Below, one piece after another: positions 6,001 to 64,000 of a stretch of 64,000 nucleotides of DNA. The stretch covers positions 56,461 to 120,460 of the forward strand of contig CAKUVI010000006.1 in the NCBI GenBank assembly GCA_934699095.1, in the 5' to 3' direction. Positions within the stretch are counted from its first letter, which is position 1. Every line of letters starts with the position of its first letter. A program made the position numbers and the translations under genes. The notes below the pieces were generated by a model. It was not told the DNA's origin. It searched no databases and saw only the letters and a program-made list of their open reading frames with translations. The stretch is from an uncultured Bacteroidales bacterium (lineage in GTDB: Bacteria; Bacteroidota; Bacteroidia; Bacteroidales; WCHB1-69).

Positions 6001-6072
6001 GCCTCCGCACAACGCTGCGAGGACCATTAACAATGCAATAGCTGATAACTTGTTGTATCTCAGTATTTTCAT
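1..6072 (-). CDS. Giant secreted/cell-surface tandem-repeat protein (adhesin-like). The 5' end is intact and the 3' end runs off the left window edge (>=2024 aa).
   Basis: The complement ATG at 6072 opens a frame with no stop down to nt 1 (6072 nt = 2024 codons). It is absent from the ORF track only because it has no in-window stop; no other minus-strand ORF in this phase is listed. The N-terminus MKILRYNKLSAIALLMVLAALCGGANAQ looks like a signal peptide. It is followed by ~12 x ~53-aa Cys repeats and then 19 x ~71-aa Ig-like repeats. Confidence 0.85.
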   Translation of the reverse strand, partial: MKILRYNKLSAIALLMVLAALCGGANAQTTDTVYHPVFGCDSLVLPANGVTYRTDTTVRIPHYSTSQGTVYMDVLNVYNITLGKSYSVHDTVEAKICSSNLPYTFSGHFFYKSGDYELGFPTTKGCDSAFILLKLNVMQGQRDTINLGICQGESSIQYEDITFDTPGSFDFIQGYDSEGCPIVKTYIVETYPTVSDTVNVQICQSELPYSFAGQNFNSPGTYMVLHTTEHGCLATTRLIISTLPSSKLRATIDTTICAADAPFMCHDIPYYTSGTYYQPLKNIHGCDSLLLTINLTVNQPVFDTVAEALCESSLPYIYNGIEYNDFGQYYIDNNPDTACSNFTVLQLTRKPSSTDTLVICTNEDSYTFYDSTFTASGTYTIETANSYQCIDKHILILTIKPAIVNDTVYATICSSEVPYEFFGSKYYSSGTYTKMVKNQLGCDSARVKLMLTVNEHPTINDEFTITRNDIPFTYRDSSYTESGVYTFRIPDTNGGCDTLVTLNLNVLQTYTVRMDTAFCANESISFLGETVSTAGEHEFTYHLADYDSVIVLNVSHYPTYQDETIYLTVGEYEMPYHFGDSAYTTDGYHEQTLKTIHGCDSVVSIHLTVNPAIINNDTIFKEICSNDLPYTIFDSVLTAAGVYRFLTPSAVSDYDSVFYVKLNVKESPALIVPDTTFLCTGNTLTLTAQSTGSVFQWSSGETTPSINVTLAGTYTVKTTNAYNCSTTASVHVIDADIPEINISGSTTLCKGSSTTLQAFGGSDYVWSNGATTDTTTVTPQSATNYSVTVTNIYGCKKTGNISINVNDLPTAEITGNTSICAGGNTVLTATGGSQYAWSNGTSLAKITVSTEGVYTVTASDINGCSNTATVNVIVNQLPEINVLGRLTFCQGGSTTLTATGGTSYQWNSGETTQTISASYAGTYTVTGTDNNGCSATKNVNVTRDEVSATITGNRYFCHGQSTTLAVSDPGNYSYQWFDGSTTNNISISAPGQYSVTVTNSNGCQSTLSATVSEYNMPAPVINGNMTICEGQSTTLRASGGNSYIWDDGNTSALISVNATGTYAVTVTNQYGCTASTSATVLVNPAPVVTLLSNDNICSGESVTLTAISNGSTYNWSTGQTGATINVNPTTTTTYTLLVTDNNGCTTTASKTVIVNQPPAAYITGNTTICQGDTAHLQANGGTQYKWSTNIYSPYLSTATAGLYTVTVTNDNGCSAILNANVVVNAVPAANVPENIEICNGEQTVLAADAPVGCSYYWSTGSHQSQITVKDAGTYTVTVTNPNQCSTVYSTNLVVRSLPQVSIVGNGETCQGNSTMLTATSGAGTQFTWSTDETSATITVSESGQYTVTATNNYGCSATAKRNVVVHALPTPQISGESNVCKGSSTTLTATGGVLYNWNTGDATGSSLAVSPEASTTYIVTVTNAYGCSATASKSIVVNELPTITFSGNSTICQGSMANITASGAVNYAWSTGEATATAHISTPGYHKVTASNSYNCVNTDSVLIVVNANPVVTISGNDHICANTPTLLSAGGAQTYVWNTNDNSSSITISPSISTSYSVTGYDANGCSSTVTKNIVVEALPVVSIIGQTTICRGESTVLTAMGGNTYQWSTGAQVANISVSPNQTTTYTVMAFNTFGCSSQATATVNVNVLPSVIFSGNASICNGETATISVTGGNSYTWNNGNTGSTLTTGTAGVYKVTATNSLNCQRSDSIEIVVWSKPVINIDGDGMICSGSSEVLTATGGVMYSWSTGENTPSIDIMPSQTTTYTVTGYDEHGCNSTTSKVVNVEALPDVHINGILAICHGDSTELTASGGHTYLWSTGATSQKITVSEHSAYTVTATSLTGCQATASATVVNNPVPYITLNGVETICENTTETLSVSGDYDFLWSTGSTEDHIDITTGGNYAVTATNDYGCTSIAAINVATLTAPFVQILGVNSLCQDESTTLIASTNAISYEWNTGDSTQTVVVTPDNTLYEVTVTGTNGCSAVAQHMVSTLPTYNYTVTGSICEHQNFSQYGFEIPV
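90..4070 (-). repeat. Coding tandem array of 19 diverged ~71-aa (~213 bp) Ig-like/PKD-like repeats in the second module of the giant protein
   Basis: I counted 19 units with the pattern I-x-G-x3-[IL]-C-x-G-x-S-T-x-L-T-A-x-G-G-x2-Y-x-W-S-x-G ... Y-x-V-T-[AV]-T-x3-G-C. An example is LCKGSSTTLQAFGGSDYVWSNGATTDTTTVTPQSATNYSVTVTNIYGCKKTGNISINVN. Boundaries are approximate. Confidence 0.85.
4081..5980 (-). repeat. Coding tandem array of ~12 diverged ~53-aa (~160 bp) repeats in the N-terminal module of the giant protein
   Basis: My translation shows recurring units such as ICSSNLPYTFSGHFFYKSGDYELGFPTTKGCDSAFILLKLNV, ICQSELPYSFAGQNFNSPGTYMVLHTTEHGCLATTRLIIS and ICSSEVPYEFFGSKYYSSGTYTKMVKNQLGCDSARVKLMLTV. 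The rough consensus is DT-x4-IC-x3-LPY-x-F-x-G-x6-G-x-Y-x8-GCDS-x3-L-x-L-x-V. Confidence 0.8.
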
Positions 6073-6123
6073 AATTATTTTGTAATATAGTGTTACCATA
6101 TAGAATATCAACATTAAAATGTG

Positions 6124-6131
6124 CAAAAATA
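6124..6131 (-). promoter_or_regulatory. Bacteroidota -7 promoter box (TATTTTTG) for the giant repeat-protein gene
   Basis: The plus strand reads caaaaata, whose complement TATTTTTG fits TAnnTTTG. It lies ~50 nt upstream of the ATG at 6072, with an A-run upstream (AAAAAATGTATTTTTGCA). Confidence 0.6.
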
Positions 6132-6185
6132 CATTTTTTGCAAGAATGTGGCAAAAAAAAAAATAACGCGTCTGGCAGGTGAAAA

Positions 6186-6932
6186 TTATTTCGTGTCGAA
6201 AATCCTGAATTTGGCGAGATGCCATTTCTGGAGGCGGTATTGCAACGATGTGGCAAGCACACCGAGACCGTACTTGCAACTGCGCCTGAAGTTTATGGAG
6301 GAGGCCTCCGGAAAGTATTTGGTGGGACAGGTCATCTCCCCGATTTCAAAGCCTGCGTGGAATATCTGCGCGATCATCTGGTTGTCGAACACGAAGTCGT
6401 CAGAGTTGTTCATGAAAGGCACTTTTCTGAGCACTTCGGATGAGAATGCGCGGTAGCCTGTGTGATATTCCGAGAGCTTCTCGCCCAGGATGAGGTTCTG
6501 CGCAAAAGTGAGGCATCTGTTGAAGAAGTATTTGTAGTACGGCATTCCGCCTCTCAGCGCGCCGCCGCCCAAGATCCTCGAACCCAACACCACGGGGTAG
6601 AGCCCGTTTGCTATCATGTAGGCCATCGATTCTATAAGCTTAGGAGTGTATTGGTAGTCGGGGTGCAGCATGACCACGATGTCGGCTCCCAATTCCAGCG
6701 CCTTCCGGTAGCAGGTCTTCTGGTTGGCCCCGTAACCCTTGTTGGTGGCGTGCTTCACTATGGTGCCGATGCCGAGCTCCCTCGCCCTGAGAAGCGTGTC
6801 GTCACCGGAGTCATCGTCAACCAGAACCACCTCGTCAACAATGTCCAATGGTATCTCCATGTAGGTCTTCTCCAAGGTCTGAGCCGCATTGAAGGCCGGT
6901 AATACAACAACAATCTTTTTCCCTTTCAACAT
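6186..6932 (-). CDS. Glycosyltransferase family 2 (polyprenol-phosphate sugar synthase-like)
   Basis: 248-aa track ORF with its ATG verified at 6932. It has the GT-A N-terminus KIVVVLPAFNAAQTLEKTY and a VLVDDDSGDDT (DxD-type) motif. Confidence 0.85.
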   Translation of the reverse strand: MLKGKKIVVVLPAFNAAQTLEKTYMEIPLDIVDEVVLVDDDSGDDTLLRARELGIGTIVKHATNKGYGANQKTCYRKALELGADIVVMLHPDYQYTPKLIESMAYMIANGLYPVVLGSRILGGGALRGGMPYYKYFFNRCLTFAQNLILGEKLSEYHTGYRAFSSEVLRKVPFMNNSDDFVFDNQMIAQIFHAGFEIGEMTCPTKYFPEASSINFRRSCKYGLGVLATSLQYRLQKWHLAKFRIFDTK

Positions 6933-21192: not shown

Positions 21193-23310
21193 ATGAAAAA
21201 ACTCTCCTTATTAAGCATTATCCTGCTGTTTGCGGCGTTCGTGGCTTCCGCCCAGCGCGTCTCAGAATCTCAGGCATCTTTAGTGTGCAAGAATTTTCTC
21301 ACAGAAAAAGGAAAAACTCCCGACTATCAGTTAAGAATAACAGAAACTTTTACCCAAGAAAACGGCGAATCAGCTTTCTATAGATTCGATATTCCCGACG
21401 GGGGCTTCGTGATTGTTTCTGCCTCAAAAACAACTCCTCCAATCTTGGCCTACTCTTTGTCGAACAATTTTGAACTTATACCCCCGGTGCGTGACCTTTT
21501 TGAGCTTTATAAGGCTGAAATAGAACAGGCTGAAGCCAACAAATGGGACGCCCGTGAAAAAGCTGCAGCTAACTGGAACCACTTCCTTGCCGATGAATTC
21601 AAAGCCAGGGACACTCGCGGCCTGACAGGCGGTCCGCTGCTTACAACCACTTGGGACCAAGGCCGTTACTATAATACCTACTGTCCTTGGGACGTCAATG
21701 CTGGTGCATACTACGACTACCGCGTGCCTAACGGATGTGTTGCCCTCGCATGCTCTCAACTTATAAACTACCACCGCTTCCCTGAAAGCGGTATCGGCGT
21801 GACCACCTACGTTCCTCAAGGCTATCCGAGACAGACCGTCTATTTCTACAAGCACAAATACAACTACGACGCCATGTGTGACCATCCGACCAACTATGCC
21901 AACGAAATCGCAAAGTTAGCCTACCACTTCGGAGTGGCCATCCAAATGAACTACAACTACGACGGCTCCGGCGCCCAAAGTCAACAGGCCAAGGCAAAAC
22001 TTCAATCCGTATTCAACTACGACCAAAGCATCACAACCTATTATCGTGGCAACTACCTTGACACATTGGTGACTGAATTTATCGAAATGCTTAAAAATGA
22101 GATAAATAACAGACGTGTGGTTTATTACTCGGGCTGTAACTCAAGTTATAATTCTTGTCACGCATACCTCCTTGACGGATATGATGAAAACGACCTTTTC
22201 AGCTTGAATTACGGATGGGGCGGCGCGTCAAACGGATACTATGCGATTGATAACTTCGTTGCCGGTCCTACTCACTTTGACTTTGGCTCCGAAACTATTG
22301 TGAACATTTTTCCGTCAGGTGCTGTGGAACCGACTTATTGCCAGGGACATAAGCGCAATACAGCAAGCTTCGGATATGTTGCCGACGGCTCCCCAACAAC
22401 TAAACCCTACCAGTCTAATCCCGATTGCTCTTGGATGGTAGCCGTGCCAGATGCTTATCAATATAACTTCAAATTCGACAGAATCGACCTTAATGAGGGC
22501 GACTATGTCACTATCTACAACGGCCCGACAGAGGAGAGCGGGGTTTTGGTGTCTCTCACAGGCTCTGAACTCCCTCAAAACAACAGCTTCAACGTCTCTG
22601 CCGACAGTGTTTTGATTACCTTCAAGGGAAATACCAACAATACAGACCATTACGGCTTTTTGATATCCTATAGCTCAACTCTCCCCGCCCGAACATGCTC
22701 CGGCACAACTCAGGTTGAGAATGTATGGACCACCACAATCTCGGACGGCTCTCAAGACGGCGAGAATTATATGCCAGAAACTAATTGCACTTGGAACATC
22801 AGACACCAATATATCTCTGGCTATGCTTTTACATTCACAAAGTTTGACCTCGGATACGGTGATTTCGTTGATATCTATAATGCCGGAACCAACCCCGCAA
22901 CTTTCTATAAACGTTTCGACATTAACAATGTGCCGGAAGGCGTATATAACGTGCCTTTCAAACGTATGCAAGTTAAGTTTGTGGCCGACAACTGGGATCA
23001 AAAAGACGGTTTTTCTCTCGGATATTATGCTTTGGCTGCAATTGAAGATTACAACGGCTTGGAAGATCTTACCGTGTATCCGAACCCCGCAACCGACAAT
23101 GTGAACATAGATTTTACAATGAACGAATCAGAAAAGGTTGTGCTCAGTCTGTTCGATATGACAGGAAAAATGCTTCGCAGCATGGATGCCCAAGCATTGA
23201 ATGGCAGCAATCACGTTTCATTTGATGTTTCTGGTCTTGCAAATGGTATCTACGTTCTGGAAATCAATACTGAAAAAGGTAAATCAATAAGAAAAATAAC
23301 TGTCCAATAG
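21193..23310 (+). CDS. C10-family (streptopain/SpeB-like) cysteine peptidase with beta-sandwich domains and a T9SS C-terminal sorting domain
   Basis: 705 aa with a signal peptide. The catalytic Cys context is NGCVALACSQLINYH and the His context is CHAYLLDGYDENDLFSLNYGWGG. The C-terminus LTVYPNPATDNVNIDF...GIYVLEINTEKGKSIRKITVQ is a typical T9SS CTD. Confidence 0.85.
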   Translation: MKKLSLLSIILLFAAFVASAQRVSESQASLVCKNFLTEKGKTPDYQLRITETFTQENGESAFYRFDIPDGGFVIVSASKTTPPILAYSLSNNFELIPPVRDLFELYKAEIEQAEANKWDAREKAAANWNHFLADEFKARDTRGLTGGPLLTTTWDQGRYYNTYCPWDVNAGAYYDYRVPNGCVALACSQLINYHRFPESGIGVTTYVPQGYPRQTVYFYKHKYNYDAMCDHPTNYANEIAKLAYHFGVAIQMNYNYDGSGAQSQQAKAKLQSVFNYDQSITTYYRGNYLDTLVTEFIEMLKNEINNRRVVYYSGCNSSYNSCHAYLLDGYDENDLFSLNYGWGGASNGYYAIDNFVAGPTHFDFGSETIVNIFPSGAVEPTYCQGHKRNTASFGYVADGSPTTKPYQSNPDCSWMVAVPDAYQYNFKFDRIDLNEGDYVTIYNGPTEESGVLVSLTGSELPQNNSFNVSADSVLITFKGNTNNTDHYGFLISYSSTLPARTCSGTTQVENVWTTTISDGSQDGENYMPETNCTWNIRHQYISGYAFTFTKFDLGYGDFVDIYNAGTNPATFYKRFDINNVPEGVYNVPFKRMQVKFVADNWDQKDGFSLGYYALAAIEDYNGLEDLTVYPNPATDNVNIDFTMNESEKVVLSLFDMTGKMLRSMDAQALNGSNHVSFDVSGLANGIYVLEINTEKGKSIRKITVQ

Positions 23311-39624: not shown

Positions 39625-39636
39625 AAACGTACGTTT
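39625..39636. promoter_or_regulatory. Perfect 12-bp palindrome AAACGTACGTTT (copy 1 of 3)
   Basis: Read directly from ctgAAAACGTACGTTTattt. It is identical to the copy at 62205-62216. Confidence 0.6.
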
Positions 39637-52678: not shown

Positions 52679-54226
52679 ATGTTTGATATGCTTAAACATC
52701 TGAGCAATAGTGTTTTATGTGTGATGTTTTTGAGTGTGCTGATCCTTGGTTTTACTATGGCAGATGCTCAAGACAACATACCGTATATAGAAACCGAAAT
52801 CCAAGATGTGACACCATATCATATCCAGTACCGATTATTGCATAATGACGAATGCCATCATGTGTATATATACAAAGACCGAGGTGACGAAGTTGAGTTG
52901 ATGTCAAAAATGTTCGGGCTGTCTTACGAGGATGTCGTGTTCCATTGGGGATGGCGTTTCGATTCTATATGGTCTCACTTTTGGACTGACTTAAAGCCAA
53001 GAAAAGAATACACCATTTGGTCTGTTCCGGCAGATTCATCAGACCGACTTTTCAATTTTGTCGGCACCTCTTTTATGACCGCTCCTATAGGTGGGCATGG
53101 TAAGTCTTCAATACAGGTGTACAGCAGTTTTATAACAGACACTGCTTCATATGTGGTGTGCGAGCCTAACGCTGAAACTTGTGGATATCATAATGGTATC
53201 GTATCTGCATCTTGGTACGAAAAACTCGGTCTTGACTCGTTATGCAGTATAATTAACAGATTTCCCGCGATCTACCAGACTGACAGGTGGGGACGCCTTC
53301 TGCTAAACCACGGTACGCGCTATTGCATGATTGCCTTCGGCCAAAATGCCGATGGAGTGCCAGGCGACACTACAGTGCACTGGTTCACAACGCCTGGAGA
53401 TTTGCAGGTTAATGAACTTGACACCATACCTGTTATCTCATATTGCTCTTCTGAAGACAATACATTAGACATACCGCAAGAATTTCTCAATCAATATATT
53501 GTCAGGATTAGCAAACCAGACAGATCGAAAATGCTACAGGAAGTTTTGCTTGGAGATGAGAATGTAATATTTGCCTCGCTTCCTGTTGGTGATTATTTTG
53601 TTGAGGTGATCAGGAAAGATGATGGAAAAATAATAAAGGAGATACGTATCTACAACAGAAAAAAGGAAGTTGTTGTTGAAACACACAAAGAAAACGAAGG
53701 CTTTACATGGACAAAACTTCGTCAGGACTACCTATACGCTGTCGGGGATTCTTCGGGAAAGGCCATAACACCGTTCGTGTTCACACGGTTAGACTATACA
53801 GATGGCTTTTTTAAGGGCAGAACCCATTCAGGAAAAAGACTTTACGATGTAATTCTTACAAAACAAGGTGATTATTTGATAGGTCCCGACCGCGGCTATG
53901 ACTACATTAATTACAATGGATTTGAAAATACTTTTTGGTTCTCGAAAAACAGGAAAATGGGTATTTGCGATTCACGTGGAAAGAATATAATCGCCCCGAT
54001 TTATGACGATATTGTCAGTTGGGAACTCTACTATGAAGTGAATCAAAATGGTTTGAAAGGTTGTGTTGACAAAAGCGGGCGAGTGATATTTCAACCTCAA
54101 TTTGATAGTTTTGAAAAGGACAAATATGGGTTCAAGGCGATGAAAGGCGGGGTGGAGTATTATATAGATTCAAAAGGCAAAGTTTTAGGTACATCAGATC
54201 AAGAAACAGAACTAATAGAGGAATAG
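52679..54226 (+). CDS. Secreted hypothetical protein with C-terminal WG/KWG-type beta-propeller-like repeats
   Basis: 515 aa with a signal peptide (LILGFTMADAQ). The C-terminal repeats (KMGICDSRGKNIIAPIYDDI, LKGCVDKSGRVIFQPQFDSF, VEYYIDSKGKVLG) fit the WG-containing repeat pattern. The gene is visibly AT-rich. Confidence 0.65.
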   Translation: MFDMLKHLSNSVLCVMFLSVLILGFTMADAQDNIPYIETEIQDVTPYHIQYRLLHNDECHHVYIYKDRGDEVELMSKMFGLSYEDVVFHWGWRFDSIWSHFWTDLKPRKEYTIWSVPADSSDRLFNFVGTSFMTAPIGGHGKSSIQVYSSFITDTASYVVCEPNAETCGYHNGIVSASWYEKLGLDSLCSIINRFPAIYQTDRWGRLLLNHGTRYCMIAFGQNADGVPGDTTVHWFTTPGDLQVNELDTIPVISYCSSEDNTLDIPQEFLNQYIVRISKPDRSKMLQEVLLGDENVIFASLPVGDYFVEVIRKDDGKIIKEIRIYNRKKEVVVETHKENEGFTWTKLRQDYLYAVGDSSGKAITPFVFTRLDYTDGFFKGRTHSGKRLYDVILTKQGDYLIGPDRGYDYINYNGFENTFWFSKNRKMGICDSRGKNIIAPIYDDIVSWELYYEVNQNGLKGCVDKSGRVIFQPQFDSFEKDKYGFKAMKGGVEYYIDSKGKVLGTSDQETELIEE

Positions 54227-54228
54227 TG

Positions 54229-56757
54229 ATGATAACAGAAGGAAATAAGGAAGGAGAACATTATAGTAAAGAACAAAAGCCGGACAGCATTCGAGTTCAT
54301 GGAGCACGGGTGCACAATCTCAAAAACATAGATGTAAACGTCCCGTTGCACAAGATCGTGGCGGTTGCGGGTGTGTCAGGTTCTGGCAAGTCGTCGTTGG
54401 CATTGGGTGTGCTGTATGCCGAGGGGTCGCGCCGTTACCTGGAGTCGCTCTCTACTTACACCCGCCGCCGCATGACGCAGGCAGCAAAGGCGGATGTTGA
54501 CGAGATATTGTATGTGCCGGCCGCTCTCGCGCTGCACCAGCGGCCGTCGGTGCCTGGCATCCGCTCCACTTTCGGCACCGGCACGGAGCTGCTCAACAGT
54601 CTGCGCCTGATGTACTCACGCTTGGCGGAGCACCGCTGTCCTAACGGGCATTATCTGCGTCCGTCGTTGGCTGTTGCGGCCGGTCAGGAGTCGGTGTGTC
54701 CGGAGTGTGGCGAACATTTCTACGCGCCGGGAGCCGAGGAACTCGCCTTCAACAGTCAGGGTGCCTGCCGACATTGTGGCGGCACAGGCATGGTGCGCAC
54801 CGTTGACATCGCAACCCTCGTGCCAGACCAGTCGCTCTCTATCGACCAAGGCGCCGTGGCACCTTGGAACAGCCTCATGTGGTCGCTCATGACCGATGTG
54901 TGCCGCGCCATGGGTGTCCGCACCGATGTCCCTTTCTGCGAACTTACTGACAAAGAGAAGGATATTGTCTATAACGGACCTGCTGAGAAAAAACATATTC
55001 TCTACAAGTCGAAGAATTCGAATGTTTCTGGGGAGATGGATTTCACGTACTATAATGCAGTATATACTGTGGAGAATGCATTGGCCAAGGTGAAAGATGA
55101 GAAAGGCATGAAGAGGGTTGAGAAGTTCCTCAGGGAGGATGTCTGCCCGGAATGCCACGGCACACGTCTCTCGGAAGCGGCTCGGGCACCACGTCTGCGC
55201 TGCATCGGTCTTGACGAGGCCTGTACCATGACTCTGTCGCAGCTCTCTGAATGGGTTGACGGTGTGCCGGCTTCGCTCCCTGAAGAGATGCGCCCGATGG
55301 CCGAGAGCATCTGCGAGTCGTTCCGCACTGCCGCCGCCCGCCTCATGGACCTCGGGCTCGGATACCTTACCCTCGACCGCGCCGCCTCGACTCTCTCAAC
55401 GGGCGAACGGCAACGTATGCAATTGGCACGCGCAGTGCGCAACCGCACAACAGGAGTACTCTATGTCCTTGACGAACCGTCCATTGGACTGCATCCATCT
55501 AACATCGTGGGCCTCAATGGCGTGATGCACGACCTCGTGGCCGACGGCAATACGGTGCTCTTGGTTGACCACGACACACAGATACTTCAAGAAGCCGATT
55601 GGATGATTGAACTCGGACCGGAAGCCGGTGCCAACGGAGGAAGAGTGATTGCTGAAGGTACTGTTGATGACATTGTCGCTAATCCTGAATCCCAAATAGG
55701 ACCTTTCCTCAATAAAAATCAAGTTCACGGATGGAATGAGTCTGATGCCGACAGTCTGTTTGAATTCGGAAAGATTCATCTTTCAACAAAAATGATACAT
55801 ACCGTAAAGCCTTTGGAGGTGGATATTCCCAAAGGAAAACTCACGGTTGTGACCGGCGTGTCGGGCTCCGGCAAGACCACAATGATATTGGAGAGCCTTG
55901 TGCCGGCATTAGAGGCGATGACAGCAAAGAAGCAGATGCCAGGACATGTAGCCGGAATATCAGCGGACGGCATTGAACATGTAAAACTCATCGATGCTTC
56001 GCCTATAGGCGTAAACGTGCGTTCCACGGTGGCTACATACGCAAACGTACATGACGAACTGCGCAAGATATATGCCCGTTCAGCAGAAGCCAAAAAGCGC
56101 GGCTATAATGCTGGCGATTTCTCCTACAATACCGGAATCCTGCGCTGCCCCGTCTGCGACGGGACAGGGTCGATAAGCCTTGATGTACAGTTTTTGCCGG
56201 ATGTTGATATCCCTTGTCCTGATTGCAGGGGCTCGCGCTATTCGAAGGCGGCATATAGTGTGCACCACACGAACAAGTGCGATGAAACACGCTCGCTGCC
56301 CGAATTGATGGACATGGACGTGCGTTCTGCAATGGATTTCTGCAGGGATATGAAAAATGTTTACCCAAAACTTGAGGTCCTCAACAGTCTCGGGTTGGGC
56401 TATCTTACCCTCGGTGAAGAGACCCCAAGCCTGTCGGGCGGTGAAGCGCAACGCCTGAAGTTGGCCACTGAGATGGGCCGCCTCCAGCATGATTCGGTGT
56501 TTGTGTTCGACGAACCTACAATCGGACTCCACCCGTTGGATGTACGTACACTGTTGCAAGTGTTTGACACTCTGATAAAAAACGGTGCCACAGTGGTGGT
56601 TATTGAACACGACCTTGACGTTATCCGAGCCGCTGACTATATCATTGATATGGGGCCTGGCGGCGGCGACGACGGCGGAAGAATCGTTGCCACCGGCACA
56701 CCCTTGCAAGTGGCTCATAACAAAAACAGCATAACAGGTTCTTTCCTGCTATGCTGA
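54229..56757 (+). CDS. UvrA-family ABC ATPase paralog lacking the UvrB-binding domain (class II-like UvrA)
   Basis: The track start at 54226 is a GTG and the ATG is at 54229. It has two ABC modules ([21 protein letters not shown]; signatures [24 protein letters not shown]). Only ~17 aa separate the CPNGH and CPECG zinc ligands, where canonical UvrA carries the ~140-aa UvrB-binding domain. Confidence 0.85.
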
Positions 56758-56786
56758 ATTTGTGTCTGACTTCTGGTACAGAAAGT

Positions 56787-59396
56787 CTATTTCAACACGG
56801 CATTGAGCATCATCTCACCCAAGCCGATGTGGTAGCCTTCTGACACGAACAGTATGTTGCCGAGTTTGTCAACAACAAGACAAACAGGCCTTTCTCCCGT
56901 GGTGTGGCTCATGAATCCGTCGTGGACGGCATTGTTCAAAGCATCGGTAATGCATGAAGTGACATCTCCGGTGGCTTTGGTGATGACTTCCAAATTTGCC
57001 GGCTGATTTTTTTCCTTCTTCCAATTGTTGTTGGGCGACACGAAGAAAATCTTGCCTCCCCACGTCTCATAATCCTTCTGTTTGGCAGCCATCTCTTTCG
57101 CCAAATGGTTTGTCGGCTCCGATCCTGGCAGTACAAGGCAGAGGATCATCTTGTCTTTGCCCGATTCAGAAATCAGCTGCGCCAAACTCTTCCCGTTGAT
57201 TTTAGCGGTTGTCAGGTTTATCCTGCCGAAGTTGTTGGTGCGAGGTGTCAACTCTGGTATGGTAACTGTCAGATCGTAGTGATCTTGGGCCTTGAGTGTG
57301 AAAAACTTAAGTTGAGATTGTACTTCGCCATCGCTGTAACGGTTGCCGGTTGACAAGCAGTAGTTGCCAGCTGGAAGGTTGAGCGTATAGTGACTTTTCT
57401 CCACCCTTGGGTCTCCCTCAAAATCGTATGAAACGTATTCACCGTTTTCGAAACGTTGGATAGTGTAGTGGATATAGTAGGTGTAGTTGTCAGGATTATG
57501 GATTGTGAGATTTGCAAGTTTGTCTTGCGGAACAACCTCTTTGTTTTCAAATGTGAACTCCTGCCAAGTGCTGTTTGTCCATACGTAGATGTTGTTGGAG
57601 GCGTTGTCGAGGTAGCATGGAATGTTGCAGCTGCGGCATGCCGCAACGAAGAAAATGTCACGGGAGTGAGCATCGGAACGTTTGGTCTTCAACACACCCA
57701 TCGGGCTGATAGGACAATTGTAATAGTTGCATAGCGGGTCAACAGTGATGAATTTTTTTGTCCAGTTGAAGATAGACTGAGCGGTAGGTGCAGGATCGGG
57801 GAGTGCTTCAGAGAAAAACATGAAAAGGTCAGATCTCCAATCTCTGATCAGTTCGTTTGAGATACGGGCCGGCAAAATACCTTTTACAAATATGTCTTTT
57901 GGTAATTTGGTGTTTCTGTGGTACTTCAGCTGTTTTTCTAAAGTTTCTGCCTCGGTATCGCGCAAATCTTTGTCTGCCAAAGCGTTAACGAACTCTTTGA
58001 GATATAGTCCGTCCTCTTTTTTGCTGTGATTTTGGAGAAATTTTATGATTTCAGCATGATTGCCCTCGCTACGATGTATTATATCAAAGAACTCGTCATC
58101 GCTGAAATATTCGTTGTGATACTTGGCTGTCTGTTGTCTTGTGGGGAATGTGGCGCGATAGGCCTCTCTTTTTTTGTCTTCTTTGGCTAATCTTTTGTCG
58201 CAAGCTGCTTGAGCTGAGGTACTTACAAAAGAATTCAAGGGCTTTCCTGCTGGCGGGTTCATGTCTAAAAGTTTAGGAATAGAGATCTCGCTAGACAAGG
58301 TCGCTTCCTCAAAGTCTTTGAGAATCAAGACTAAATGGTTCTGTTTGCGCAGGTCAAGTTTCGACCAAGCGAAGTCGTTGCTCTGTTTGGCCCACACTAA
58401 CAGGTCGCCGAGTCCGGTGTTCAGCTTGGCACGCCCGTCTTTGTCTGTTTTCACCTCGGCAAGCGTATAATATTCGGCGTAATTGTATAGTTTGAAGCAT
58501 ACAGATGCGTTTTTGGCCGGTCTGTGCAGTTTGTCGTAAACGGTGACGTATGCGGTGGTTGTGTCGGCGTAGTTTGAAAGGAGATTGATGCAGGAATAAT
58601 AGGGGGTCTGTTTGTTCACTTCTTCAGATCCGTTGTATTTGCCGAAAACATTGGTGTGAACCATCATTGTTCGGGTGGATACGTTTGCGAACCAGCCCAT
58701 GTTAAGAGCTGGTGCAGGTTCGCAGGCGCCGAGGAAGTACCATTTGCCGTCAACCCAAACTTCCACCCAGGCGTGGTTGTCGTCGCAGTGTGCCCAGCGC
58801 GGGGTATAGCACTGGCGTGCGGGAATTCCCACAGCGCGCAAGGCAGTCACAGTGAGAGTGCTCTCTTCGCCGCAACGCCCGTGCGATGTGCGCAACGTGG
58901 CCAAAGGCGCCGATGTGCGGGCATCGGCCGGCTGGTAGTCAACATATTCATGGCACCAGTGGTTCACCTCAAGTGCCGCATCATACATGCTCATGTCTTT
59001 GATGCGATTTTTCAGCTGGTGGAAGATGTATGAGCGCGCCGTGTCCAAATTCTCGTTGTTCACCCTGTAAACCAATACAAAATGACGGAATACATCCTCC
59101 GGAACTTTAGCACCCCATGAAAATGTCTTGCGTGCTTCGCATGCTATCGCCACTTGCTGCTCGAAAAACGACAAATCGTAGTCGGCAAGATCGCTTTGCG
59201 GCATGTATGCATACAAGAATTTCAGATAATTTGCAGTCTCTTTGTCGTATGAGTTGATTTTCGTGATTAAGGCTTCAGTGACACCGTCCCTGTTATTGAA
59301 ATCCTGTTCAACTGTCTTCCAATAATCAGTTTGAGAAGTGGCGGTGAATATTGTTACAATAGTTACAAATGAGATGATGACTGTTTTTTTGAGCAT
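56787..59396 (-). CDS. Secreted transglutaminase-like (Cys-His-Asp papain-fold) domain protein, large multidomain
   Basis: 869 aa with a signal peptide and the core GRCGEESTLTVTALRAVGIPARQCYTPRWAHCDDNHAWVEVWVDGKWYFLGACEP. It lies 12 nt downstream of the DUF5689-like gene. Confidence 0.75.
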   Translation of the reverse strand: MLKKTVIISFVTIVTIFTATSQTDYWKTVEQDFNNRDGVTEALITKINSYDKETANYLKFLYAYMPQSDLADYDLSFFEQQVAIACEARKTFSWGAKVPEDVFRHFVLVYRVNNENLDTARSYIFHQLKNRIKDMSMYDAALEVNHWCHEYVDYQPADARTSAPLATLRTSHGRCGEESTLTVTALRAVGIPARQCYTPRWAHCDDNHAWVEVWVDGKWYFLGACEPAPALNMGWFANVSTRTMMVHTNVFGKYNGSEEVNKQTPYYSCINLLSNYADTTTAYVTVYDKLHRPAKNASVCFKLYNYAEYYTLAEVKTDKDGRAKLNTGLGDLLVWAKQSNDFAWSKLDLRKQNHLVLILKDFEEATLSSEISIPKLLDMNPPAGKPLNSFVSTSAQAACDKRLAKEDKKREAYRATFPTRQQTAKYHNEYFSDDEFFDIIHRSEGNHAEIIKFLQNHSKKEDGLYLKEFVNALADKDLRDTEAETLEKQLKYHRNTKLPKDIFVKGILPARISNELIRDWRSDLFMFFSEALPDPAPTAQSIFNWTKKFITVDPLCNYYNCPISPMGVLKTKRSDAHSRDIFFVAACRSCNIPCYLDNASNNIYVWTNSTWQEFTFENKEVVPQDKLANLTIHNPDNYTYYIHYTIQRFENGEYVSYDFEGDPRVEKSHYTLNLPAGNYCLSTGNRYSDGEVQSQLKFFTLKAQDHYDLTVTIPELTPRTNNFGRINLTTAKINGKSLAQLISESGKDKMILCLVLPGSEPTNHLAKEMAAKQKDYETWGGKIFFVSPNNNWKKEKNQPANLEVITKATGDVTSCITDALNNAVHDGFMSHTTGERPVCLVVDKLGNILFVSEGYHIGLGEMMLNAVLK

Positions 59397-59408
59397 GACA
59401 AATGGTTT

Positions 59409-60704
59409 TTAGTTGTTTTTTCCGGAATTCATTATCTTGATTCCCCTTACGGCCCAGCGTGTTCCGTCAGCCGAGCCGTTCTTCCTGTATCTCATGGCTA
59501 TGCGGAAGTTGCTGTTGTTGACTTGGCTTAAAGCAAGAGCATTGCTGAGGGCGAATGCACTCGGGTAGTTGTTGATGTTCGGCGTGAAGGCATGCCAATC
59601 GCCCTCGTCGAATGTCCCGCCATTGTATGTGGTGGAATAGTAAACCTGGTAATATGTTGCAGGACTGCCGCCCACGTTGTTCTGATGGTCGAGATAAAGC
59701 ACGGCATTGGCAAATTCATCAATGTGCAAAGCCGGTGAAATCAGCCAGTCGTCGCACTCGGAACTGCTGTTGTTGTGATAGATGAAGTCGTTGCCTCCAA
59801 AGGTCTGGAATTTCCAAGACTGGTTGTCAGGATATTGCGACCATCCACCGGTTGTGAGACTGTTGTTGTTGAAGGTGATGTCTTCAATGGTGGATTCTGG
59901 AACAACTGAACTCGGTTGTATGTCGTCCTTTGTACGGAGAGTGAGCTGATAATCGCTGTTGTAAACGCTCAGGATGCCATAGAGACAATACTCCTTTGAG
60001 GCGTCAATCACAGTGTTGCGGAAAAGTGCGTAGTTGCTGGTGCGCACCACCACCGTGGCTCCGTTGACAGTGATGTTGCGGTCTGTGGTGAAATCATTGT
60101 CTGCCAAGGGCTGGCCGTTGTCGGCTGCATCAAACTTGCATCCGTTGATCTTTACAAGGCAGTTGACGTTCTCTGCGGTCAGGTCGTTGGCACCCGTGAT
60201 TTCTATCGGGTTGGCGATGAGAGGGTTCTTGAGATCTGGCAGACCATCCTTGCTGATGTATCTTGATATGAAATGCTGTTGTATCCTGCCTACTGAACCA
60301 TCGTATTTCCATCCAATCTGATATTTGTTGTGATAATCGCCGACAATAAGTCCTGCACAATTAAGGTAAACAGTCTGGCCGACAGGATATTCGTTGAAAA
60401 GGCTTGTGCGGTCGAGGGCTATCTCGATGCCGCCGGTTTCATCTTGCACAGTGATATATTTGTAGCAGTTGCCTCCTTGGTCGGAGCTCACAACCACAGC
60501 CTTCACAACAAAGGTTTCATCATATCTGCAAATGGAATCCTGACTGCCGGTCCCTAACGAAGGGTGCATGGCTTTGATGTCTGCAATGGTTTTGTTGGCA
60601 GCCGGACCGTCATAAACGGGTATCTCCAATTCTGGGGCCTCCCAACGGTTACAACTGAACAACAAGGTTGCCAATGATATTATGAATAATGAAGATTTTT
60701 TCAT
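59409..60704 (-). CDS. Surface lipoprotein: N-terminal OB-fold-like (DUF5689-like) region plus a C-terminal choice-of-anchor-J-like domain
   Basis: 431 aa with a lipoprotein signal (LLFSC). The motif VVSSDQGGNCYKYITVQDETGGIEIAL...YPVGQTVYLNCAGLIVGDY fits my memory of DUF5689. The C-terminus GGWSQY...CDDWLISPAL fits choice-of-anchor J. Confidence 0.6.
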   Translation of the reverse strand: MKKSSLFIISLATLLFSCNRWEAPELEIPVYDGPAANKTIADIKAMHPSLGTGSQDSICRYDETFVVKAVVVSSDQGGNCYKYITVQDETGGIEIALDRTSLFNEYPVGQTVYLNCAGLIVGDYHNKYQIGWKYDGSVGRIQQHFISRYISKDGLPDLKNPLIANPIEITGANDLTAENVNCLVKINGCKFDAADNGQPLADNDFTTDRNITVNGATVVVRTSNYALFRNTVIDASKEYCLYGILSVYNSDYQLTLRTKDDIQPSSVVPESTIEDITFNNNSLTTGGWSQYPDNQSWKFQTFGGNDFIYHNNSSSECDDWLISPALHIDEFANAVLYLDHQNNVGGSPATYYQVYYSTTYNGGTFDEGDWHAFTPNINNYPSAFALSNALALSQVNNSNFRIAMRYRKNGSADGTRWAVRGIKIMNSGKNN

Positions 60705-60741
60705 AGGTGTTTGAATTTCAATTTGTTATGATGATTAATGA

Positions 60742-61995
60742 TTATTTTGACAAGCCTTTGATTGCAATATTGGATATGTACCACGATGATTTGTCGCAGT
60801 CGTGGCGGAAGGCCATTCTGAACGTCGGTGAAGCGGCTTCGGCAGGAAGTGCCACAGAAACATCGCTCTGGGCCGTTGATCCGGAGTACTGAGACAGGTC
60901 AATCTGAGTCCATTGGGTTGTGGTGGGGTCGCCGGTGTAGTTGGTCGTGTAGTAGCAACGCATTTTTTCAGGGAAGAATGTTTTCGGGGCGCGGTGCGTG
61001 AAGTTGAGCGTGGGCTCTTGCACACCGCTCATGTTGATGGCCGGGGAAATGAGCCACTTGTCCTGAACCTCCGATGGATTGATGGAGAAGCCGCTGAAGC
61101 TGCTGTTGCTCAAAGTGTACCACTCATTGCCAGTTCCGCTCTGCGTCCAGCCGTTGTCGAAAGCTGTTGTGTAGTCGCTGACAGAATAGATGGTCTGCAT
61201 CGTCTGTGGCACAGAGAAGTTCTCGAGGTCGTCAAGACTGCTGATGACAAGTTGGACTGTGCTGTTGTAGCGGGTGAGGATGCCGGTGATATTGCCGACT
61301 CCCACGGGCAGCGTAGTGCCTGCAAATTTCGCGTAGTTGCTGGTCCGCAGGGTGATGGTTGACCCGTCCGTCATCTTGATGTCATGGCTGGTGGCTGCAT
61401 TCGGCTCGGAGAAGGTGGCGATGCCTCCCTCTACGAATGACGCTCCTTCCAATCGTACCAAACGGTTGTAATATTCGGTTGGAATGTCGTTGGCGCCAGG
61501 TATGCTCGTGAAGACTATGGTAGGGGAGACAGGCTGCGGGGTTCCGTCTATGAAGATGTACTTATAGGCCTTGTTGCTCGGTATGGCCTGCATAGAACCG
61601 TTAACCCACATGCCAAGCTGATGTAGCTTGCGGTAGTCGCCGATGTGCAGTCCGTCGCACTTCACATACACACGCTGTCCGACCTTGTACTTGTTGTATA
61701 GGGCGGTGCTGTTGATTTTGATCTGGATTCCGGCGGTGCCGTCCTCGATGTTGATGGATTTGTAGTTGTTGCCCCACTCGTCGGAGGTGGTTACAATTCC
61801 GGTGATGATTGTGCCCGCTGGAATGGTGTCGTAGGAATCCAAATCCCCGCACTCATGCAGCGACAGCAATTCGGCAATTGTCATGTTTGCTTCCCCGTCA
61901 AATGTAGGCACCGGGGCAATGTCAGGTTCCAGGTTGCAACCTTGTAGAAAAAGGCATCCTATTATAATAATCGATGCTAAATGTCTGAATTTCAT
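60742..61995 (-). CDS. Surface lipoprotein, paralog of 59409..60704 (DUF5689-like plus choice-of-anchor-J-like)
   Basis: 417 aa with a lipoprotein signal (FLQGC). It has the same architecture: VTTSDEWGNNYKSINIEDGTAGIQIKI...YKVGQRVYVKCDGLHIGDY, and a C-terminal NGWTQS...DKWLISPAI. Confidence 0.6.
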   Translation of the reverse strand: MKFRHLASIIIIGCLFLQGCNLEPDIAPVPTFDGEANMTIAELLSLHECGDLDSYDTIPAGTIITGIVTTSDEWGNNYKSINIEDGTAGIQIKINSTALYNKYKVGQRVYVKCDGLHIGDYRKLHQLGMWVNGSMQAIPSNKAYKYIFIDGTPQPVSPTIVFTSIPGANDIPTEYYNRLVRLEGASFVEGGIATFSEPNAATSHDIKMTDGSTITLRTSNYAKFAGTTLPVGVGNITGILTRYNSTVQLVISSLDDLENFSVPQTMQTIYSVSDYTTAFDNGWTQSGTGNEWYTLSNSSFSGFSINPSEVQDKWLISPAINMSGVQEPTLNFTHRAPKTFFPEKMRCYYTTNYTGDPTTTQWTQIDLSQYSGSTAQSDVSVALPAEAASPTFRMAFRHDCDKSSWYISNIAIKGLSK

Positions 61996-62010
61996 ATACT
62001 TAATTGTTTG

Positions 62011-62051
62011 TTTATTCTTTCTGTGAAACTTTTATTCTTTCTATGTAAAAC
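62011..62051 (-). repeat. Imperfect 20-bp tandem direct repeat in the 5' leader of the DUF5689-like operon
   Basis: tttattctttctgtgaaac / tttattctttctatgtaaaac, with the first 12 nt identical. It lies between the -7 box (62090) and the ATG (61995). Confidence 0.7.
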
Positions 62052-62089
62052 AATAAACTGTTCAAAACAGTCCACTTTGTTTTAAACTG

Positions 62090-62097
62090 CAAAAATA
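62090..62097 (-). promoter_or_regulatory. -7 promoter box (TATTTTTG) for the DUF5689-like/transglutaminase operon
   Basis: The plus strand reads caaaaata. It lies ~95 nt upstream of the ATG at 61995. Confidence 0.5.
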
Positions 62098-62204
62098 ATA
62101 TTTTCCAGCTTCAATGATATATTATACCAAATAAAAAAATCTCATGAGGACGATATCTTCCATATTGTATTTCTGACTGTTTGTCTTCGGCATATTTCTG
62201 ATAG

Positions 62205-62216
62205 AAACGTACGTTT
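62205..62216. promoter_or_regulatory. Perfect 12-bp palindrome AAACGTACGTTT (copy 3 of 3) in a divergent intergenic region
   Basis: Read directly from atagAAACGTACGTTTtccc. It is identical to 39625-39636 and lies between divergent promoter boxes at 62090 (-) and 62334 (+). Confidence 0.6.
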
Positions 62217-62333
62217 TCCCAAAACAGTATTGGTGATGCTTGATGACAACCGCGGGACGCGTTTGCCTACATTTACATCGATTAAACTTTTTTTACAAAA
62301 AAATGTCAAAGCGTGTTGTATGAATAAAAAATG

Positions 62334-62341
62334 TATATTTG
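62334..62341 (+). promoter_or_regulatory. -7 promoter box (TATATTTG) for the right-edge surface-protein gene
   Basis: AAAAAATGTATATTTGCAGG. It lies ~141 nt upstream of the ATG at 62482, giving a long leader. Confidence 0.5.
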
Positions 62342-62481
62342 CAGGTTAACTAATATTTGTTAAAAGGCTACTAACTACAAGGATCTCAGAACTTAACGAC
62401 GCTGACTTTACTGTATTTTCTTCCAAAATCGACACATTAACGTAACACAATAACAATTTTTATTAACAAAAACCAAAAAAG

Positions 62482-64000
62482 ATGAAGAAAATTTTTACAT
62501 TTTTCGTTGCGCTCGTAGCCTTCGCAGTAAGTGCTCGCGCTCAGGCAACCATCATCTTGGAAGCACACAATGTGTGGAATGATGGAACAGGTTACCAACT
62601 TCTCCTCGATGCAGACCATAGCACCTATGGTACTACAATCCCTGAAACAGGTCCGCTTACCACTTCAGGTGACGCTGATGCTTCAGTTTACGCTCAATTC
62701 GAATACAAGGTTCCGACAAACGCCGACGGTTCACTTACAACACAAAACATGGTCATGGACGGAACTGCAACAATCGAAATTCCGGCAGGTACCTACGACT
62801 ATGTAGTGGTTAACCCGACTCCCGACGACAGAGTTTGGATTGCATCAGGCACAGAAAGCCGCGGTGACGACTACACATTCGAGAACGGTAAGATTTACCA
62901 CTTCTCAGTTACTCTTAATGGAAACAACGACTTGGTGACACTCACTGTTACAACTATCCCCACAGAGCCCACAATCATCGCTTCACCTGAGGCTCTTGCT
63001 TTTGGCAACGTTATTTTAGGGAACAATGCAACACAGTCTATTTCAGTTTCATCCTACCAAATCACTTCAGGTATCACAGCTACAGTTGAGGCTCCTTTCA
63101 GCGTTTCTACAGATGGAACAACATTTGCCACAACAGCTACATTGTCTTCTGAAGGCGGCACACTCTACGTTCGCTACACTCCTGAAACAGTTGGCAGCGA
63201 CAACGGTACTCTCACTCTCGCAGCCGGCGATGTTACTACTACTGTTGCCCTCACAGGTGCAGCACTTGACTGCGGTAACAACCCGATCCCTTACATCTTT
63301 AACTTCGACAACGATGCAATGGCATCATGCTGGGAGTCAATCGATGCTAACGGAGACGGTAAGCTCTTCCAAATCGTAACCGGTTCAGCTTATGCATATT
63401 ACAATTACAGCTCAACAGAAGCTGCTAACGACTATCTCGTTTCTCCTGTTTTCGCACTCGACGGCAACCAACTTCTCTCTTTCGACTATCGCGCAGCAAG
63501 CACAAGCTATCCTGAAAGATTCGAAGTTCTCGCATGGGGTGCAGACACCATAGCACTCACTAGCCCTATCGATGTAACCACCTCCACTGCCACAACCCAG
63601 TACATCGACCTCTCAGAATTGAACGGAAACTACAAAATCGTTTTCCACTGCATCTCTGACGCAAACATGTACAATTTCTACATCTCAAACTTCAAGATTG
63701 ACATCAACGGCACATCAATGACCGTAAATCCTGAAGCTATTGACTTCGCCATTGTTCCTATGAACACCACTTCTGATGCTCAGACTGTTGAAATGACATG
63801 CATCAACGTAACTGATCCTGTTACATTGACAACAACAGCTCCTTTCGAAGTATCATTGGACGGCGCTTCTTACGCTGCAACTGCAACTATCCCTGCAAGC
63901 ACAGAATCTGTTGTTAACCATACAGTTTATGTAAGATTTGCTCCTACAGCTGTTGGCGATTTCTCAGAAAATCTCACAATCGCAGCCGGCGAAATCACAA
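62482..64000 (+). CDS. Secreted surface protein, 3' end runs off the right window edge (>=506 aa): DUF2436-like N-terminal domain, Ig-like domains and a choice-of-anchor-J/cleaved-adhesin-like domain
   Basis: The ATG at 62482 gives MKKIFTFFVALVAFAVSARAQ (signal peptide), and the frame stays open to nt 64000. It is not in the ORF track because it has no in-window stop. ATIILEAHNVWNDGTGYQLLLDADHSTYG matches my memory of DUF2436. CWESIDANGDGKLFQ...NDYLVSPVF fits the choice-of-anchor-J / cleaved-adhesin motif. Confidence 0.8.
   Translation, partial: MKKIFTFFVALVAFAVSARAQATIILEAHNVWNDGTGYQLLLDADHSTYGTTIPETGPLTTSGDADASVYAQFEYKVPTNADGSLTTQNMVMDGTATIEIPAGTYDYVVVNPTPDDRVWIASGTESRGDDYTFENGKIYHFSVTLNGNNDLVTLTVTTIPTEPTIIASPEALAFGNVILGNNATQSISVSSYQITSGITATVEAPFSVSTDGTTFATTATLSSEGGTLYVRYTPETVGSDNGTLTLAAGDVTTTVALTGAALDCGNNPIPYIFNFDNDAMASCWESIDANGDGKLFQIVTGSAYAYYNYSSTEAANDYLVSPVFALDGNQLLSFDYRAASTSYPERFEVLAWGADTIALTSPIDVTTSTATTQYIDLSELNGNYKIVFHCISDANMYNFYISNFKIDINGTSMTVNPEAIDFAIVPMNTTSDAQTVEMTCINVTDPVTLTTTAPFEVSLDGASYAATATIPASTESVVNHTVYVRFAPTAVGDFSENLTIAAGEIT

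Follow-up and report, generated by a model that had tools for sequence, protein, structure and literature searches.

Paired DUF5689 lipoprotein genes in an uncultured Bacteroidales bacterium: a putative rearranged variant of the DdbCD DNA-uptake module without a transporter gene in cis

Two paralogous genes for DUF5689 lipoproteins, here called LipA and LipB, lie toward the end of a 64-kb window (the whole stretch of DNA analysed, 64,000 nt of contig CAKUVI010000006.1) from an uncultured Bacteroidales bacterium, followed by a gene for an 869-aa transglutaminase-like protein and faced by a divergent gene for a DUF2436 protein. The locus appears to be a rearranged variant of the DNA-uptake module represented by DdbCD and RA0C_RS04915-04920, with two paralogous lids, no transporter or nuclease gene in cis, and two unrelated neighbours gained within a narrow lineage. 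The conserved unit is a TonB-dependent transporter gene followed by LipA and LipB, not the four genes that the initial annotation of the window had treated as one cluster.

LipA, LipB and the transporter unit of their relatives

LipA and LipB both span the full DUF5689 profile (PF18942) in Pfam searches, with E values of 3.2e-56 and 1.2e-54, respectively, and both exceed the cut-off of 30 bits for choice-of-anchor J (NF038128), with 42.5 and 46.6 bits. In LipA, the DUF5689 region, a tandem oligonucleotide/oligosaccharide-binding (OB)-like region, makes up the N-terminal half and a choice-of-anchor J jelly roll the C-terminal half; LipB likewise has an N-terminal DUF5689 and a C-terminal choice-of-anchor J domain. 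The two are full-length paralogues with 31% identity, as first proposed, and the profile searches also reproduced the Transglut_core domain of the third protein and the DUF2436 and choice-of-anchor J domains of the fourth. The putative lipoprotein signals (signal peptidase II type, SPII) read from the sequences consist of a hydrophobic h-region followed by LFLQGC↓N (LipA) or LLFSC↓N (LipB), and the lipid-anchor Cys of these signals is invariant among the homologues.

By their domains, LipA and LipB are assigned to the DdbD / RA0C_RS04920 family of lipoproteins. The initial statement that they have no assigned function is outdated, as DUF5689 plus choice-of-anchor J lipoproteins of this family have been studied genetically (PMC8459023; bioRxiv 10.1101/2025.03.18.642099). 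Natural transformation of Riemerella anatipestifer requires RA0C_RS04920 (DUF5689 plus choice-of-anchor J) as well as the adjoining barrel RA0C_RS04915, which is recognised only through its CarboxypepD_reg domain (PMC8459023). In Bacteroides thetaiotaomicron, the ddbABCDEF locus is needed for extracellular DNA depletion (bioRxiv 10.1101/2025.03.18.642099 / PMC12478041). DdbD is a DUF5689 protein whose model is similar to the dsDNA-binding HIN domain of p202, and its predicted partner is the TonB-dependent transporter DdbC (bioRxiv 10.1101/2025.03.18.642099).

LipB was the one of the two lipoproteins to be modelled, and its AlphaFold2 model has a mean predicted local distance difference test score (pLDDT) of 85. 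In Foldseek searches, the N-terminal half matches the p204 HINab-dsDNA complex (5z7d, E 3e-6) and p202 HIN1 (4l5q, E 6e-5), while the C-terminal half matches jelly rolls of the Eph ligand-binding domain (Eph-LBD) and carbohydrate-binding module (CBM) kind, including the carbohydrate-binding domain of a chondroitinase (8jiy). As modelled, the N-terminal half of LipB is a HIN-like tandem-OB fold; LipA gives a weak OB-fold match (tRNA_anti-codon), and the OB-like N-terminal half of the initial annotation is supported to this extent in both proteins. Given the HIN-like fold of LipB and the literature on DUF5689 proteins, nucleic-acid capture, originally offered as a guess, is the best-supported reading of what LipA and LipB do.

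Relatives of the locus define the conserved unit. In three of them (L085, L086 and L087), whose LipB orthologues are 51-75% identical to that of the window, a gene for a protein of about 850 aa without Pfam matches precedes LipA and LipB on the same strand, and the same order is found in a fourth (L092). A LipB-anchored scan of metagenome contigs yielded 63 loci, 49 of which carry enough upstream DNA to be informative; the order is barrel-LipA-LipB in 48 of these 49 and LipB alone in the remaining one. Where the window has the control region between LipA and the DUF2436 gene (61996-62481), relatives have the gene for the approximately 850-aa protein. Gene-neighbourhood conservation, suggested initially as a check on the cluster, thus holds for the lipoprotein pair and fails for its association with the transglutaminase-like and DUF2436 genes.

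The approximately 850-aa protein family has no significant match in Pfam or NCBIfam, the nearest being Plug at E 0.04-0.08, and a sequence profile of the family found no match in the PDB. In a Foldseek search with its AlphaFold2 model, however, all of the top 50 matches were TonB-dependent transporters, with FhuA at E 5e-13 over about 740 columns. A profile search gathered 2072 relatives, the remote ones among which (900-940 aa) hold CarboxypepD_reg and Plug domains above Pfam thresholds; one such remote relative is directly followed by a DUF5689 gene (L160). The fold search and these remote homologues are the only basis on which the approximately 850-aa protein is predicted to be a TonB-dependent transporter. 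In the clade near the window, the CarboxypepD_reg domain of the barrel is replaced by a Lys-rich and then acidic low-complexity N-terminus: the transporters at L085 5979-8522, L086 6123-8684, L087 6160-8694 and L092 4820-7381 have a Lys-rich stretch (for example KGKNKKQK) past the signal peptide, followed by an acidic one. Such a polycationic tail is a curious feature for a putative importer of DNA.

One subclade has nine loci in which a gene of the Exo_endo_phos_3 nuclease/phosphatase superfamily is divergent from the barrel gene, and in one 1158-aa protein (P0458) Exo_endo_phos_3 is fused to the N-terminus of a barrel-family transporter; the divergence or the fusion concerns L087 (5005-6030), L136-L144 and L151. 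This linkage is confined to a clade more distant from the window. Across at least 50 loci, the module has no linked glycoside hydrolase gene.

The window itself has no such transporter. As initially noted, there is no SusC/SusD pair in the 64 kb; neither the genes of the region nor the large open reading frames (ORFs) of the window match Pfam SusD or TonB_dep_Rec, and no large ORF has any other TonB-dependent transporter-like domain. Tblastn of three barrel proteins against the window gave nothing better than E 0.28. On a contig that extends the window (L001), the next 7 kb or so encode the DUF2436 protein, a BNR protein, an aldose epimerase and others, with no transporter gene among them. When the window was compared by blastn with the L092 locus (barrel-LipA-LipB-transglutaminase), only the three coding regions aligned, at about 68% nucleotide identity; nothing aligned upstream of LipA, and no similarity to the barrel gene is left in the control region. 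No secreted nuclease gene lies near these genes in the window.

The order without a barrel recurs in three diverged strains (L157, L158 and L159), and the selection analysis was based on these, since four further contigs (L001-L004) are identical to the window and have no power. The ratio of non-synonymous to synonymous substitution rates (dN/dS) against the three strains is 0.10-0.13 for LipA and 0.11-0.13 for LipB; between L157 and the window, the two genes show 19 synonymous and 9 non-synonymous differences. Because dN/dS is low across diverged strains, LipA and LipB are under purifying selection and are being maintained, not decaying.

Orphan LipB-type genes also occur in other lineages, after a Porin_10 family gene in L093 (3946-7268) and alone beside a TolC-like gene in L100 (2315-3715; also L101). 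DUF5689 lids have therefore lost a dedicated barrel more than once. Between the window and L158, dS is 0.17 for the transglutaminase-like gene and 0.02-0.04 for LipA and LipB, which suggests that recombination has made the locus a mosaic, its boundary lying close to the junction between LipB and the transglutaminase-like gene. In L159, an IS200-type Y1 transposase gene (5830-6288) lies downstream of the transglutaminase-like gene, at the position of the uvrA-like gene in the window. The flank downstream of the transglutaminase-like gene is prone to rearrangement.

Gene neighbours and control region

The layout described initially, with three tightly packed minus-strand genes facing a divergent gene for a secreted protein, was reproduced (Table 1). 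The gaps are 12 nt between the transglutaminase-like gene and LipB and 37 nt between LipB and LipA. Promoters were sought with the Bacteroidetes -7 box pattern TAnnTTTG, and neither of the short gaps between the three genes contains a minus-strand match; the single minus-strand box and the strong terminator past the last gene agree with the one-promoter arrangement first proposed. The short gaps, the single box and the terminal hairpin make a single transcription unit plausible, and the three genes would then be co-transcribed. The hairpin overlaps the 3′ end of a convergent uvrA-like gene (54226-56757) encoding an 843-aa UvrA-like ABC ATPase, a second-class UvrA paralogue, which shares it with the transglutaminase-like gene.

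Table 1. Features of the LipA/LipB locus in the window
Feature	Position	Strand	Remarks
Transglutaminase-like gene	56787-59396	-	ORF; 869 aa
LipB gene	59409-60704	-	ORF; lipoprotein, 431 aa
LipA gene	60742-61995	-	ORF; lipoprotein, 417 aa; opens the plausible transcription unit
DUF2436 gene	62482-64000	+	ATG at 62482; N-terminal 506 aa of a 1027-aa protein; exits the window
Intrinsic-terminator-like hairpin	56727-56756	-	12-bp stem and T run; just past the transglutaminase-like stop codon
Divergent control region, LipA/DUF2436 gene	61996-62481		486 nt; 29.8% GC
Bacteroidetes -7 box TATTTTTG	62090-62097	-	about 95 nt ahead of the LipA ATG
Bacteroidetes -7 box TATATTTG	62334-62341	+	about 141 nt ahead of the DUF2436-gene ATG
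18-nt direct repeats, two copies	62011-62028 and 62031-62048		LipA leader
Perfect 12-nt palindrome AAACGTACGTTT	62205-62216		

The control region is AT-rich and holds a palindrome and leader repeats, as first reported, but the palindrome carries little weight: 24% of shuffles of this AT-rich spacer hold a 12-nt palindrome, and AAACGTACGTTT as an operator is not significant alone. The same 12 nt occur a second time in the window, in a convergent intergenic spacer (39625-39636), and the two copies have 14 nt (GAAAACGTACGTTT) in common in one orientation; three copies are found in an unrelated Bacteroidia locus (L076; 2566, 2673 and 8564). A possible role for AAACGTACGTTT is as a binding site for a regulator or as a methylation/restriction motif. 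Scans for sigma-70-type promoters and for terminators gave no excess over shuffles, and only the hairpin past the transglutaminase-like gene and the -7 boxes are used here. An Rfam scan of 56600-62600 found no credible RNA family.

The 869-aa protein contains a Transglut_core domain (PF01841; E 2.4e-28, 99 bits, aa 128-221) that aligns with 3isr and with the PNGase 2f4m. Of the Cys-His-Asp core proposed in the initial annotation, the first two residues stand: Cys175 in a GRCGE motif and His208 in a HAW motif do not vary among 11 sequences with identities as low as 47%. The third does not, since the catalytic Asp of 3isr and 2f4m aligns with an invariant Gly223 (in WYFLGACEP); the invariant E226 and D216 are candidate substitutes. 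An Ig-like domain (aa 284-359) matches the Bacteroides domain 3e8v with E 7e-16, a deposition described as a "possible transglutaminase-family protein", and the C-terminal domain is thioredoxin-like (2m72, E 6e-4) and lacks CxxC. The protein has a signal of the signal peptidase I (SPI) type and neither a lipobox nor a C-terminal domain (CTD) of the type IX secretion system (T9SS), so that a periplasmic location would be at least as likely as secretion.

This family is uniform in length (about 870 aa) and present in more than 598 GTDB species-level loci, including Dysgonomonas, Muribaculaceae and Lentimicrobium, and is best described as a widespread family of putative exported Cys-His enzymes. 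Its neighbourhoods were counted in 80 GTDB loci (L005-L084), where the best relative of the window protein is 73% identical. DUF5689 genes lie beside the transglutaminase-like gene in one of the 80 (L005), and the adjacency is missing in relatives at 67-74% identity (L088, L090, L006 and L007), which speaks against the initial view of the four genes as a unit. Most often cutC lies immediately upstream (33 of 80 loci), transcribed from the same strand, and the ends of the two genes overlap or abut; a type-I asparaginase gene often lies further upstream of the cutC-transglutaminase pair, with a Na/Pi cotransporter nearby (compare L088 3098-6542). The cutC linkage and the PNGase-like core hint at a role unrelated to DNA. 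No literature linking this family with cutC was found.

In a neighbour-joining tree, the loci in which LipB is adjacent to the transglutaminase-like gene (the window, L158, L005, L092 and L093) form one clade, which suggests a single relocation followed by further rearrangement. The later rearrangements include the loss of the barrel in the window lineage and, in L093, the order Porin_10-LipB-GATase-transglutaminase.

The DUF2436 protein is seen at its full length of 1027 aa on identical contigs from human-gut metagenomes, Hadza and others (L001). A signal peptide is followed by the DUF2436 jelly roll (E 7.5e-52 in Pfam), a fold that has been solved (PMC11448926), by repeated choice-of-anchor D and J modules, with choice-of-anchor J above its curated cut-off, and, beyond the window, by a T9SS CTD (Por_Secre_tail PF18962, E 9e-14; TIGR04183, E 7e-12). 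It is, judging from these domains, an ordinary modular surface protein and a predicted T9SS (type A) cargo. Its similarity to LipB is confined to 66 residues of the J module, and the divergent arrangement of the DUF2436 gene and LipA is found only in the window lineage. In two distant genomes, a 246-aa DUF2436 plus T9SS-CTD gene lies right after the transglutaminase-like gene (L019 12736-13476 and L040 10382-11119), a second and independent co-occurrence. A streptopain-like peptidase C10 encoded elsewhere in the window (21193-23310) combines a Spi-inhibitor-like propeptide and a CUB domain with a predicted T9SS sorting domain, which shows that the organism has a T9SS.

Interpretation of the locus

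We consider it probable that the LipA and LipB lids bind DNA through their HIN-like halves and either serve a transporter encoded elsewhere or act alone, and that the transglutaminase-like gene is co-transcribed with them by an accident of gene order. LipA and LipB would be outer-membrane lipoproteins, presumably exposed at the surface, whose HIN-like tandem-OB module most likely binds nucleic acid without sequence specificity. In relatives, the pair presumably caps a DdbC-type TonB-dependent transporter in the manner of SusD-like lids, and would pass DNA or oligonucleotides from outside the cell to the barrel, which would import them for nutrition or for transformation. In the window lineage, a rearrangement would have taken the transporter gene out of the operon, and LipA would thereby have gained a new promoter region and, facing it, a divergent gene for an adhesin-like T9SS protein. 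As the two genes are intact and under purifying selection, LipA and LipB are most likely still functional, either partnered by a transporter whose gene lies elsewhere or binding DNA on their own. The transglutaminase-like gene came to lie next to the module, on its downstream side, in the common ancestor of a small clade, and is probably co-transcribed here while standing outside the DNA-uptake mechanism.

Several observations weigh against this reading. With neither a transporter nor a nuclease in cis, working of the ddb or Riemerella type would need partners encoded elsewhere. The strict surface-export rule quoted in the ddb paper, C(x/xx)(D/E)(D/E), is not matched by the residues past the anchor Cys (CNLEPD and CNRWEAPE). 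The link of LipA and LipB to DdbD / RA0C_RS04920 comes from shared Pfam and NCBIfam domains and not from direct sequence alignment, and their full-length matches to the NCBIfam family NF052645 (lipo_M949_1556), at 144 and 117 bits against a cut-off of 475, leave them outside that subfamily. That proteins of the DdbD family bind DNA is, in the literature too, no more than an inference, and the barrel model is of low confidence (pLDDT 48). Finally, the adjacency of LipB and the transglutaminase-like gene has survived several rearrangements within its clade, which could mean selection over inertia.

An alternative, in line with the initial annotation, is that the locus is one dedicated surface system: the lipoproteins would capture a polymer, the transglutaminase-like enzyme would process or cross-link that polymer or the lipoproteins, and the DUF2436 adhesin would be co-regulated with them. 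Such a system would account for the short gaps, the one -7 box and the one terminator, for an adjacency that a monophyletic clade has retained even where the barrel or LipA has been lost or a GATase gene inserted, for the choice-of-anchor J module common to all three non-transglutaminase proteins, and for the small DUF2436 plus CTD genes that follow the transglutaminase-like gene in L019 and L040. However, 79 of the 80 GTDB loci of the transglutaminase family have no DUF5689 neighbour, cutC being the usual one, and within the flanks fetched none of the 63 metagenome loci of the LipB alignment has a transglutaminase homologue. The divergent DUF2436 gene is peculiar to the window lineage, and the transglutaminase-like protein is probably periplasmic and not at the surface, since its signal is of the SPI type and it lacks both a lipid anchor and a T9SS CTD. 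We regard a dedicated system as improbable. Also unlikely is a related proposal in which LipA and LipB, freed from their dedicated transporter, have become stand-alone surface binders of extracellular DNA, for attachment to an extracellular DNA matrix or to feed a generic importer, in a new operon with the transglutaminase-like enzyme and co-regulated with the T9SS adhesin; if true, this would be a new use of a DNA-uptake lid.

The ligand could instead be a glycan or another surface polymer that is not a nucleic acid; the jelly roll of choice-of-anchor J would then serve to bind carbohydrate, as a CBM does, and the DNA link would be incidental. The Eph-LBD/CBM-like matches of the C-terminal domain, 8jiy among them, are consistent with this, as is the weak full-length match to a family named after the Riemerella gene M949_1556, whose disruption altered lipopolysaccharide antigenicity. 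The HIN-like tandem-OB fold of LipB argues otherwise, as do the transformation and DNA-depletion genetics of DUF5689 proteins and their transporters, the nuclease-like endonuclease/exonuclease/phosphatase (EEP) gene linked or fused to the barrel, and the lack of a module-linked glycoside hydrolase in the loci surveyed, and a glycan ligand seems unlikely to us. It is very unlikely that LipA and LipB are a decaying remnant, functionless since the loss of the transporter gene: the transporter is indeed missing in cis and LipB occurs as a single orphan gene in other lineages (L100, L101 and L093), yet neither ORF is disrupted, both begin with a good lipoprotein signal, there is a -7 promoter box, and the arrangement is stable across strains with the substitution pattern given above (19 synonymous and 9 non-synonymous differences to L157; dN/dS about 0.1).

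If LipA and LipB are DNA-uptake lids, as we favour, the locus bears on a recently recognised way for DNA to cross the outer membrane of Bacteroidota, that of the DdbCD / RA0C_RS04915-04920 system. It refines the map of a young field, and overturns nothing, by providing a natural "lid-only" genotype: lids can persist under purifying selection once the transporter gene has left the operon, and might then work with another barrel or by themselves. A by-product of the analysis is the widespread, usually cutC-linked family of transglutaminase-like proteins of about 870 aa, with its Cys-His core and a Gly at the Asp position.

Comparison with known systems

The neighbours of the pair have known counterparts of their own. 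The 869-aa protein resembles the transglutaminase-like cysteine protease/PNGase superfamily in its Transglut_core domain, with Cys175 in GRCGE and His208 in HAW. It differs from PNGase and 3isr in the invariant Gly at the canonical Asp position, in its multidomain build with a redox-inactive thioredoxin-like C-terminus, and in its usual partner, cutC. The DUF2436 protein shares an N-terminal DUF2436 jelly roll and a T9SS CTD with the gingipain/HagA-type proteins of Porphyromonas gingivalis (PMC11448926), but has choice-of-anchor D/J repeats in place of peptidase C25 or cleaved-adhesin domains.

The likeness of the LipB model to the HIN-200 proteins (p202, p204, AIM2 and IFI16) lies in the tandem OB folds, with the best match to the p204 complex; at about 10% sequence identity it is a resemblance of fold only, and HIN-200 proteins belong to eukaryotic innate immunity. 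With the SusC/SusD polysaccharide utilization loci, the ancestral three-gene module shares the logic of a surface lipoprotein lid on a TonB-dependent barrel. The module differs in having no SusD (tetratricopeptide repeat-like) fold, no SusC-type Pfam match in the barrel and no glycoside hydrolases, and the window lacks any barrel.

Closer parallels are found in the DUF5689 systems. RA0C_RS04920 of R. anatipestifer, with DUF5689 and choice-of-anchor J/DUF5017, has the same architecture as LipA and LipB; RA0C_RS04915, for which CarboxypepD_reg is the sole Pfam recognition, is comparable to the remote barrel homologues found here, and the order of barrel and then lipoprotein is that of the relatives of this locus. 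The Riemerella pair works in a Flavobacteriales competence context, whereas the present locus, from which the barrel gene has gone, belongs to an uncultured gut Bacteroidales without evidence of competence. In the ddb locus of B. thetaiotaomicron, a DUF5689 protein lies beside a TonB-dependent transporter, as do the LipA/LipB orthologues that follow one in relatives, and DdbD and LipB give the same match to the HIN-like fold of p202. Where the ddb locus has one DUF5689 protein, two paralogous DUF5689 lipoproteins are found here, with neither a transporter nor a DdbA, DdbB or DdbF nuclease in cis and with a transglutaminase-like gene downstream. The transporter of the window-related clade differs in turn from that of ddb, with a Lys-rich/acidic N-terminus and no CarboxypepD_reg. 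Uncultured rumen and gut Bacteroidales thus hold a distinct subtype of the system, in which two paralogous DUF5689 lids accompany a putative transporter without the usual N-terminal domain.

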